From a virus (Duplodnaviria > Heunggongvirae > Uroviricota > Caudoviricetes): a stretch of 64,000 nucleotides of DNA. A program made the translations under genes and the position numbers. Each line of letters begins with the position of its first letter. Positions within the stretch are counted from its first letter, which is position 1. The notes beneath the pieces are model-generated. The model did no database searches and was not told the DNA's origin. It saw only the letters and a list, made by a program, of their open reading frames with translations. The DNA lies in the IMG/VR virus record IMGVR_UViG_3300027304_000003. One strand, given 5' to 3'. Shown piece by piece: positions 4,461 through 17,381 of this stretch.

Positions 4461-7400
4461 TTATTGTTTTGTTCCACAAGGGGTAGGGTTATCAGATCCT
4501 TCTGTATCATCTGTATTAACATCTTCAAATTCTATATCTATTACACTAGGAATGCCACCTAATTTATCCAATGCTGCAATTGTAGCTCTTGTTTCAATAT
4601 CAACTTTATCATCTGTTAATAAGTCTTTACCATTCTTCCAATAGACATCTATGTCATTGTTCTCAACATGATTTTTTTCATGTAACACTAGAAAGTTAGT
4701 AATCTTATCAACACTGTTTAATATAGTCTTAAGAACATCAATTGTATATCCTTTATCAGCTAACTTATTTAAAACCTTAGCTTTTTGTTCAGATGTAGGT
4801 CCACCTTCTTTACCTTCAAAGTAGTTAAAGAATTCATCCACACTTTTAGGAGGATTAATTGTAATAGTACCAAGTTTACTTGCCTGTGCAAATCTCTTAG
4901 TGCCATCAGCATTCTTTAGTTTCTCATCTGTCACGTAGTCTGGAATTTGAATGTATGGTTCTGTTGATTGCGAAGATACAAAATTTTGTTCACCTAATTC
5001 ATTAAAATATATACGAATTTCATCGTCAGAAATCTCATTCTCAATCTTCTCTGTGCCATTATTTAATACAGACTTTCTGCTATCAGTATAGTATTCAGAT
5101 ACTAATCTACCATCTCCACGTAAGTTAATAAGTTTATAAACATGTTTATTAATTACCTCACCTTTGTAGGTTGTAGTTTGATATGTTACAGGAGTACCAT
5201 CATCATAGTATACCTTCTTATAACCATATACATTCTTTAATGACATATCTCCTTGGTTCTTTCTCTCTACATAGCTGTAGTTTGTAATAGATAATCCTGT
5301 CTTCATATCTACTCTTTCACCACCTTTTATTTGTACCACTCTAGGTACTAACAAGTAGTCATTGCTAAGATAGAAACTATCATACTCTTCACTTAACGCT
5401 AATATTCTTCTGTCTGTAGAAAGACCAAACTTATCAATGTTAGGGAAATAATCAGAGGATTGATATTGATAAATGTCACCAATAATATCACCAAAGTCAT
5501 TTACCTGTACATCTACTGGAGCTTCATCAGCTAACCAAAACTTAGGTTCAAACTTTTTAAATACCTTATTGTCTTTCCAGTTGTTTCTTTGGAAACCTCC
5601 ATCTGCAAAAGCATCTAATGATTCATCATACATCAAAGGTGCCATGATAGGAGCAACGTATTTACTAGAATCCTCAATAGGAATAATGCTAGCAATACTT
5701 ACACCATTCTCATATGTACCTTGTAAGAGAGCCATCTTAACTAAGTCTTTATATAAAGCATTAGTACTAGGAGTATCTCTTAATTGTCTCATATATCCTA
5801 TGTATAAGTTCTTATCATATGCACTTCCTTTAATATTCACAGTTAACTTAACACTCATTACACCATCTGGTCTTGGAGAACTAATCACCTTAAAATCATT
5901 CAAGATAGGATTAGAACTTATCTTCTTAGCTTCTTCTAATTGAGCAGATACAGAGGTCTTTGGATTTACAAATAATTTATTTATCTCTGAGTTAAATCCT
6001 GTCTTTGTTTGTATAATATAATCTAAGAAGCTGGCTTTCAACTTGTTAGCTATTCTTTCAAAGTCATCTGCACCAACATATTTATTTCTAGCATATGGTT
6101 TTAATAATGGGTCAATTACATTAATTCTAAATTGATCTTGCTCAAGCTTTAATATTACTCCCATTCCTTCCATAGATAAGTCAAGATAATGTCTTTGCTT
6201 AGCAATAAATATCTTAGGATTCTCAGGATCTAATAGTTCAGCAATGCCACTAAATGGACTTCTTGCTATGGTTATATCAGTTCTAACCTGCTTCTTAAAC
6301 AAGGTATCACCACTTCTATATCTAGTGGTATCATAGTTAATAGCCTGTGTAAGGTCAAAGTTATATTCAGCTAACTTAGCATATTTCAAGAACTCATTAA
6401 GAATTGCATGTTGTTCAGCATTTCTTTCAATGCCTAATTCGTTACCTGCATAGTAATCAGCAATGTTTGCCTCTAAGTTACTTATATCTATTCTTGCTGT
6501 CTCAATAGCCTTATTTGTTGTAACAAAGTTACTTTTAATACTATCAATATCAAATTTACTAAATAGACCCTTTTTATTTTGGCTATCAAGTTGTTTTAAG
6601 TATTCTCTAATAATAGGCTGGCTCATAAAAATACCAGTGTATTCACCTGCACCTATTCTCTCTAAGAACATAAAAGTACCTACAGATAAGTCACTAGTAA
6701 CAAGTTCAACAATATATGGTTTATTAGCTACGTCCACAAATGATGTACCATATCCAGATAGTCTAGATGATATGTATTGTTTTTTACCATCAGCTGTCTT
6801 AGTTCCTGATAATGAAGCATATTCTTTATCACCAATCTTCACTTTGTTATGAGGCAAGATAATACTACCATCTCCAATAAATTTTCTATCTTGCTGTGGT
6901 AACATGAAGAATCTTTCTGGGTTCAAATATATCTGACCCTTTTGGAATAGAGAGTGACTTGTAATATTTGTAGCAGCAATACCTATCCATCTTTTAGCTG
7001 TTACAAAGTAGTGTCTTAACTTAGTCATAAAGTTTCTGTTAAGAATCTTGTTCTTAACTTGATCACCTTTAGGATTAACTAGTTTGCCTATTCTAACAGA
7101 AAGCTTTTCTAATCCAGCATCATTTACAGGAGAAATAAGTCTTTCAAAGTTCTCAGGTAGAGTTAATAACTCTTCCATGCTATCATAGTACTCATTCTCA
7201 AGAGAACGCTTATACATATCTTTTACATAATCTTCTCTAAGAGAATTACTAAGTATATCCTTTGTCAGCTTTTCTTTATTAATAGATAAGTCTTCAATTT
7301 GCTTATTCATGTAATCTACAGCTGTAATATCTTTTTGTGCAGCTTGATCAGTGATTGCTTTGAATATAGATAAACGATCGTAGAAGAAGTCAAGCTCAGA

Positions 7401-17381: not shown

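Follow-up and report, generated by a model that had tools for sequence, protein, structure and literature searches.

The 64,000-nucleotide stretch of phage DNA analysed here (the window) encodes, on the minus strand at 4461..17381, a 4306-aa protein that very probably combines, in a single polypeptide, a two-barrel virion RNA polymerase of the crAss type and a cargo protein of the upstream type. The ORF listing of the window and the translation confirm what a preliminary description of this DNA had reported, namely one 12.9-kb frame of 4306 aa, a single ORF that carries a DxDxD-type motif; it starts with ATG. The motif does lie about 3240 residues into the chain, with AGSDFDIDKL at aa 3237-3246 and DFDID at aa 3240-3244, but its nucleotide position is 7650..7664 (minus strand), one base off the 7651-7665 originally given. 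Only one further D.D.D string, DVDTD at aa 2482, is present in the protein.

The giant ORF is tightly packed between a 902-aa ORF upstream (17383..20091) and a downstream ORF on the same strand (1..4457), which begins at position 4457, runs for at least 1485 aa before leaving the window, and is a homologue of crAss001 gp49 by BLASTP. The genes for the large terminase (50641..52680), portal (48056..50641) and major head protein (44543..46096) lie in this order on the same strand and are followed by tail-fibre genes, several virion structural proteins, and then the giant ORF. Cellulophaga phage phi14:2 has its genes arranged in the same way, with g067, g066 (encoding the RNAP) and g065 closing the structural module. 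The giant gene is therefore placed as members of this polymerase family are, at the end of the structural module and adjoining gp67-like and gp65/gp49-like sequence. A 117.6-kb IMG/VR contig is 97-98% identical across the giant gene.

Polymerase core

Searches of the whole 4306-aa protein against Pfam, PHROGs and PDB sequences returned nothing useful, and six sub-segments compared with Pfam at E values up to 10 gave noise only. Given that Pfam and PHROG families are not matched, the assignments made here rest on pairwise and profile homology at 20-25% identity, together with predicted structure. With aa 2628-3627 as the query, tblastn matched about 145 crAss-like records besides crAss001, whose matching gene is annotated as a putative RNA polymerase, and BLASTP matched crAss001 gp50 (E 1e-32) and phi14:2 gp66 (E 2.7e-23). 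The context of the motif is nearly identical in the three proteins, reading TLAGSDFDIDKL in the giant, TKTGSDFDIDKM in gp66 and TLSGSDFDVDKL in gp50. A profile of 50 homologues matched two blocks of gp66 (PDB 6VR4) with E 3.2e-44; these blocks, at gp66 801-1264 and 1327-1729, according to the gp66 paper cover both double-psi beta-barrels, the connector (1095-1238) and DFDID (1361-1365), and also include the bridge helix (1529-1559) and trigger loop (1598-1636).

The DFDID of the giant aligns residue for residue with 1361-DFDID-1365 of gp66, and G-S-D-F-D-I-D-K is kept in at least 90% of the 50 homologues, which are 18-55% identical to the query. For gp66, Mg-dependent DNA-templated RNA synthesis has been shown in vitro, and alanine mutation of the DFDID aspartates abolished activity (bioRxiv 10.1101/2020.03.07.982082). 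Because the motif is conserved in homologues and aligns with this experimentally essential triad, it is not a chance match, and we assign it as the catalytic metal-binding aspartate triad. AlphaFold modelled aa 2700-3850 with a mean pLDDT of 85.7 and a pTM of 0.81, with the DFDID block ordered at a pLDDT of 79, and Foldseek of this polymerase-core model retrieved 6vr4_A (E 1.5e-27, TM 0.62). The predicted model displays the elements that define the fold, i.e., two double-psi beta-barrels in one chain, a connector, a bridge helix and a trigger loop. Two lysines, K2862 and K2881 (8739..8798, minus strand), are nearly invariant in the 50-homologue alignment and lie in modelled beta-strands ~380 aa upstream of DFDID. 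They align to gp66 at ~1026-1050, ahead of its connector, and may therefore supply the basic residues in the first, beta-like barrel.

The gp66 profile match, the motif alignment and the fold together bear out the RNAP beta-prime-like reading of DxDxD in the preliminary description. Structural similarity to double-psi beta-barrel polymerases, set beforehand as a test of that reading, was found in the match to 6vr4_A, and DFDID is neither disordered nor non-conserved. K2862 and K2881 are candidates for the conserved Lys/Arg that was to be looked for.

Two other readings of this region must be weighed against these data. The giant might be mainly a structural or ejection protein, with its polymerase-like region a catalytically dead relic. 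The annotation of gp33 of Flavobacterium phage Fpv1 merely as a virion structural protein would fit such a view, as would the gp66 crystal, in which DFDID adopts a conformation unable to bind Mg. However, GSDFDIDK and many neighbouring residues are nearly invariant even in relatives at 30% identity, which is expected of an active site and not of a relic, and gp66 bears the same motif, is active in vitro, and is dead when its aspartates are mutated. We consequently regard a relic as very unlikely. An N4-type (T7-like, single-subunit) virion RNA polymerase would be of similar size (N4 vRNAP, ~3500 aa) and would have a similar role in the life cycle, but the fold searches returned two-barrel polymerases only, with no T7-like or N4 structure and hence no right-hand single-subunit fold, and no sequence match to the N4 vRNAP chains in the PDB was detected. 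On the fold results, an N4-type enzyme is rejected, and its probability is close to nil.

Cargo module, chain anatomy and fusion

The extra N-terminal region of ~1900 aa that had been proposed to be fused to the RNAP part is indeed present, and its ~2000 aa represent an orthologue of crAss001 gp47 and phi14:2 gp67. Other crAss-like phages encode this cargo protein as a separate gene just upstream of the polymerase. In BLASTP, gp47 aligns through its aa 81-721 with aa 89-708 of the giant (E 6e-22) and through its aa 2132-2294, where an HExxH is shared, with aa 1867-2003 (E 1.5e-9); gp67 aligns with aa 91-539 (E 5e-10). Profile comparison with gp47 gave E 1.2e-24 for the N-module and 1.4e-20 for the HExxH region (gp47 aa 2131-2331). 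Since the homologies to gp47/gp67 and to gp50/gp66 lie in one frame, the giant is an in-frame fusion of cargo protein and polymerase; judging by homology, the third member of the trio (gp49/gp65-like) is encoded directly after it. In crAss001 and phi14:2, gp47, gp49 and gp50 and gp65-67, respectively, are virion proteins by mass spectrometry and are regarded as cargo that is ejected before the DNA.

To map its regions, 74 related giants were aligned onto the 4306-aa protein (coordinates below are on the minus strand). The conserved module A (aa ~60-650; 15432..17204) was defined by BLASTP and tblastn homology, is predicted to be all-helical, was aligned by BLAST in ~80% of the 74 giants, and matches a protein of Leptolyngbya phage Lbo-JY46 (tblastn, E 6e-31). 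Its AlphaFold model (AF2; aa 41-720, 19 sequences) is of low confidence (pLDDT 44), and its role as a helical cargo module is a guess. A Kyte-Doolittle scan found one strongly hydrophobic stretch, aa 199-221 (NLGFMLGAVGGAVVQDIAIGAVT; 16719..16787), which could possibly function as a membrane-inserting helix. The poorly conserved variable slot 1 (aa ~650-1000; 14382..15434) is followed by the conserved module B (aa ~1050-1450; 13032..14234) and by variable slot 2 (aa 1500-1800), which holds a 171-aa in-frame cassette (aa 1602-1772; 12066..12578) with the motifs FQGYKGGF..GKGT..GDGKDKAMR and FVVGDMPGVD. Neither a 97%-identical relative nor any of the 80 related loci has the cassette, which was not found in annotated phage records either; homologues do occur outside the related loci. 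Comparison of the cassette with Pfam and its profile search against solved structures yielded no genuine match, the lone formal match in the searches of the HExxH region and cassette against solved structures being a designed coiled coil, and a SLOG/DprA-like domain is our guess for its identity from inspection of its residues.

The stretch from aa 1850 to 4130 is conserved as a block across the 74 giants, with the HExxH domain first and the polymerase after it. The HExxH domain (aa ~1850-2010; 11352..11834), defined by homology to the gp47 C-terminus, contains HEIFH at aa 1892-1896 (11694..11708). The N-terminal part of the polymerase (aa ~2010-2699; 9285..11351) is conserved in >89% of relatives, and is followed by the core (aa 2700-3850; 5832..9284), with both predicted double-psi beta-barrels, the connector and a downstream helical region, and by a conserved C-terminal region (aa ~3851-4130; 4992..5831). 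The chain then enters a variable C-terminal domain, slot 3 (aa ~4131-4290; 4512..4991), with a second HExxH (HEKNH, aa 4234). This domain, including the second HExxH, is also found inside a 2507-aa protein of phage cr116_1, and in relatives slot 3 is occupied instead by NADAR, 2OG-Fe(II) oxygenase, PIF1-type helicase or histidine phosphatase domains. Three variable slots on a conserved scaffold resemble the polyvalent proteins of phages, with their swappable effector domains, as a functional analogy and not as a sequence family. The slot map indicates where the chain tolerates change, and is an aid to the design of expression constructs.

Reading from the N- to the C-terminus, the chain would begin with a helical cargo module that includes one hydrophobic segment. 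A second conserved module, a variable slot filled by an inserted 171-aa domain and a small HExxH domain come next, and the two-barrel polymerase with DFDID (about 2100 aa) is followed by an exchangeable domain at the C-terminus. Homology with phi14:2 and crAss001 suggests that the giant would be packed in the capsid, leave via the tail before the DNA does, in an at least partly unfolded state, and refold in the cell to transcribe early genes. Packaging, ejection and early transcription have been shown for gp66 (bioRxiv 10.1101/2020.03.07.982082) and a model has been proposed for crAss001; for the giant, packaging, ejection and activity are likely by analogy.

In the word-indexed protein database this family appears only as pieces of <2000 aa, and fusions were therefore sought through ORF scans of contigs and in a representative library. 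Among 63 complete, non-identical DFDxD ORFs from related IMG/VR contigs, 56 were at least 3500 aa (median 4206 aa, maximum 5107 aa), and the median position of DFDxD was 3238, so that the 4306-aa protein is of about median size. When the N-module profile was run through HMMER in an exhaustive search, it matched 2080 representative clusters (50% identity clusters); 84 of the best 146 were at least 3200 aa, and 70 of these 84 carried DFDxD in the same chain. The cultured phage Fpv1 encodes a 4401-aa equivalent with DYDID at aa 3222. Previous work has noted that some phages encode such proteins as huge fused polyproteins (bioRxiv 10.1101/2020.03.07.982082), and a review counts RNAP genes with sizes up to about 6000 aa among the hallmarks of the crAss-like group (PMC10136315). 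Given the fusion in 56/63 relatives, 70 clusters, Fpv1 and the published giants, the architecture is ordinary, and the fused cargo-polymerase form is the usual one in this phage group and already described. The preliminary description had called the architecture unusual and twice the expected size, a view that is not sustained, as the comparison was with phi14:2 gp66 alone; a chain of about 4200 aa is standard in this clade, and it is the 2180-aa phi14:2 enzyme that departs from the norm. The main value of the present analysis is the correct annotation of an environmental crAss-like phage with a standard fused gene.

These surveys also bear on whether the long ORF is an artefact, in which two adjacent genes would have been run together because faulty sequencing or assembly erased a stop codon or a frameshift. 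In some relatives (L004, L011, L053) the gene is divided among two or three ORFs, but splits that do not carry the cysteine pair discussed below themselves look like errors: L004 has a run of N, and L011 is frameshifted where its close relative L010 (53% to the query, with the same tail and the same downstream start) is continuous. Moreover, homology is unbroken across the junction, and the same single frame recurs in the relatives, clusters and cultured phage counted above. With this arrangement in dozens of independent contigs, we reject an assembly artefact as extremely improbable. A more serious alternative to a chain that acts as one polypeptide is that the giant is a true polyprotein, cut near aa 1800-2070 by the embedded HExxH domain or another protease into a gp66-sized polymerase and a gp47-sized cargo protein, the same functional units as in phi14:2. 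Cleavage has been proposed for fused forms by Drobysheva et al. (bioRxiv 10.1101/2020.03.07.982082), the HExxH domain lies at the junction, and the places where the gene is naturally split in L061 and L032 fall in the same stretch (about aa 1810-2070 of the giant). H1892, E1893 and E1914 are invariant, so that HEIFH is accompanied by an invariant Glu 18 residues downstream. However, the fifth HExxH position, which would supply the second metal-binding His, is His in only 21/70 relatives and Glu in 49/70. The domain has no Pfam match and, in a profile search of solved structures, no match to a solved peptidase, and the label 'zincin-like' used in the literature thus rests on the motif and on that literature. 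Also against cleavage, no conserved or known cleavage site was found, and if covalent continuity matters, as the terminal-cysteine pattern might imply, cutting would be unnecessary. Taken together, we consider cleavage unlikely, although with an appreciable chance of being correct.

Terminal cysteines of the cargo proteins

While comparing the cargo proteins, we also observed that they contain hardly any cysteine outside their termini. Across the series, the first protein has Cys at the C-terminus only, the middle one at both termini, and the last at the N-terminus only. The giant has one Cys in 4306 residues, C4302 (4476..4478, minus strand), in the tail PCGTKQ, and within its at least 1485 aa the downstream ORF has its only Cys at position 3 (MICKV; nt 4449-4451). 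At the fused junction in the window, both cysteines are absent. The three ORFs upstream of the giant have no Cys, whereas Cys makes up 0.7-3% of other virion proteins in the window. In phi14:2, Cys is found only at the last residue of gp67, at positions 3 and 2179 of the 2180 in gp66, and at position 3 of gp65; in crAss001, gp47 has one near its C-terminus, gp50 has Cys near both termini and one internal, and gp49 has Cys at position 5 only.

A survey of 80 loci found Cys within the last 6 residues of 70/71 polymerase ORFs and within the first 5 residues of 64/65 following ORFs, at an overall Cys content of 0.046%, compared to 0.6% in unrelated ORFs at the same loci. A C-terminal Cys was present in 2/48 complete following ORFs. 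Among stand-alone N-module proteins of 1400-3200 aa, 36/41 have Cys in the last 6 residues, with a group median of one Cys. The pair is missing precisely at fused junctions and returns where the gene is genuinely split, as in L061 (...KKCKG / MGVCPN) and L072 (...SLNCL / MGCPNK), the latter being split within slot 1 with the pair at the split, and small extra proteins inserted in the series (L035, L067) have Cys at both ends. The rule holds in p-crAssphage, DAC15, Fpv1 and cyanophage Lbo-JY46, and in crAss002 if the start is moved 32 codons downstream. In Fpv1, the sole Cys of gp33 is the penultimate residue and the next protein begins MAC. The IAS virus fits except for the N-terminus of its RNAP (gp056), which has no Cys; the junction contains ambiguous bases.

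Based on this pattern, it is possible, although in our estimation somewhat short of an even chance, that the cargo proteins are joined head to tail in the virion by disulfides between their single terminal cysteines. Linked in this way into a single covalent chain, they would be threaded through the tail and then freed when the bonds are reduced in the cytoplasm, and gene fusion would swap one disulfide link for a peptide bond. In crAss001 virions, disulfides do form. Alternatively, the terminal cysteines could possibly constitute a shared metal site or have another role. In a literature search of incomplete coverage, neither terminal cysteines nor disulfides were mentioned in connection with these cargo proteins, and a 2026 paper on N4 lists the relation of the three polymerase-associated proteins of crassviruses and their ejection as open (PMC13434306). 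If true, disulfide joining would offer a simple answer to that question, testable with existing cultured phages, which could matter more than the fusion itself, and it may apply to crAss-like phages and some others (e.g., Fpv1 and Lbo-JY46).

Comparison with known systems

The giant resembles phi14:2 in its two-barrel single-chain polymerase with DFDID, its gene order and its terminal-cysteine pattern, at an identity of about 23%. In contrast, phi14:2 has three separate proteins (1797, 2180 and 1421 aa), the first two of which correspond to one 4306-aa chain here, and its HExxH is in gp65, whereas that of the giant precedes the polymerase as in crAss001 gp47. In crAss001, the N-module and HExxH of gp47 match both ends of the first 2000 aa of the giant, gp50 is the match to the polymerase, and gp49 is the match to the downstream ORF, with all three detected in virions; gp47, however, is a separate gene on the opposite strand, but its counterpart here is fused co-linearly to the polymerase. 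Fpv1 gp33 (4401 aa) belongs to the same fused size class and comes from a cultured phage with a Bacteroidota host, but its sequence has diverged strongly (23% identity over ~700 aa, E 5e-8), its annotation is virion structural protein and not polymerase, and its record has no Crassvirales classification.

Giant fused polymerases, annotated as fusions, are also found in p-crAssphage (gp44, 4070 aa) and crAss002 (gp33, 4245 aa). In these two phages the polymerase is fused to the downstream subunit, with the motif at ~1430-1500, and the gp47-like protein with the zincin domain is separate, whereas here the partner is the upstream protein and the motif lies at 3240. The vRNAP of coliphage N4 (gp50, ~3500 aa) is likewise giant, is packaged and ejected, transcribes early genes, and combines an N-terminal domain, core and C-terminal domain in one chain as the giant does, but has the unrelated T7-like single-subunit fold and is not a member of the family. 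In gp96 of P23-45, the tail tape measure protein is the fusion partner of a polymerase, so that both the partner and the phage lineage differ from those here.

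Cysteine placement in the polymerase-associated proteins

Five consecutive ORFs on the minus strand (582, 1033, 902, 4306, and at least 1485 aa; window 1-25048) contain only two cysteines in approximately 8300 residues, in contrast to the window's remaining virion genes, where cysteine content is 0.7-3%. This low cysteine content may mark a set of proteins that has to pass through the tail. The terminal regions of the polymerase-associated cargo proteins were compared across the window and related loci L003, L001, and L005-L092, revealing that cysteine is confined to the last 6 residues in the first protein of the series, occurs at both termini in middle proteins, and is restricted to position 3-5 in the final one. 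In the window, this pattern is represented by C4302 of the 4306-aa fusion of cargo protein and polymerase (4476-4478, minus strand) and Cys3 of the following ORF (4449-4451, minus strand). Among the 80 loci surveyed, 70 of 71 polymerase ORFs had a cysteine within the last 6 residues, and an N-terminal cysteine was present in all but one of the 65 ORFs that follow the polymerase (64/65).

The cysteine pair is missing where cargo proteins are fused, but is found where the genes are genuinely split. This placement suggests from sequence comparison that the cargo proteins could be joined head-to-tail via disulfide links. No mention of the terminal-cysteine pattern in these proteins was found in the literature searched. 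The giant ORF is also split without a cysteine pair in three relatives (L004, L011, and L053), and these cases resemble frameshifts or assembly gaps: the reading frame of L011 shifts at a point where its near relative L010 is continuous, and L004 contains a run of Ns.

An exchangeable domain and an in-frame cassette

Comparison of the giant ORF with loci L004 and L005 and with the relatives' proteins P0002, P0006, P0022, and P0057 indicated that the domain C-terminal to the polymerase is exchangeable. In the window this slot is occupied by a small HExxH domain (4512-4991, minus strand), and in relatives by NADAR, 2OG-Fe(II) oxygenase, PIF1-type helicase, or histidine phosphatase domains; in each case a short cysteine-bearing tail still comes after the domain. 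The giant ORF also harbors a 171-aa in-frame cassette (aa 1602-1772; window 12066-12578) that is missing from a 97%-identical IMG/VR relative. The cassette, with motifs FQGYKGGF..GKGT..GDGKDKAMR and FVVGDMPGVDSQFIDYL, belongs to an uncharacterised family otherwise made up of small proteins or C-terminal domains, several of these with cysteines at both ends.

Other features of the window

A 115-aa ORF (53494-53841, minus strand) with 9 cysteines (7.8%) contrasts with the rest of its module and is possibly a zinc-binding protein. Local GC content rises to 0.41, compared to approximately 0.34, at 38001-40000, over a tail-fibre gene with collagen-like repeat matches (37093-39279). The sign of the GC skew flips near 55 kb, at the coding-strand switch; a DNA polymerase gene lies on the plus strand (60990-62942).

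Homologues in named phages

Outside Crassvirales, the cyanophage Leptolyngbya phage Lbo-JY46 (L008, PP438436) encodes a 1552-aa protein that is homologous to the N-terminal module and has its sole cysteine as its last residue. The next protein (2748 aa) starts with MSNC and contains two HExxH motifs, and no DFDxD was seen in the examined part of this locus. In crAss002 gp33 (L089, NC_055828), the true start probably lies 32 codons downstream of the annotated one; an in-frame MSC at residues 33-35 is consistent with the N-terminal cysteine rule. Finally, gp33 of the cultured Flavobacterium phage Fpv1 (L092, NC_031914; 4401 aa), whose sole annotation is virion structural protein, is distantly homologous to the polymerase core and has DYDID at aa 3222. 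It is probably a virion RNA polymerase that has gone unrecognised.
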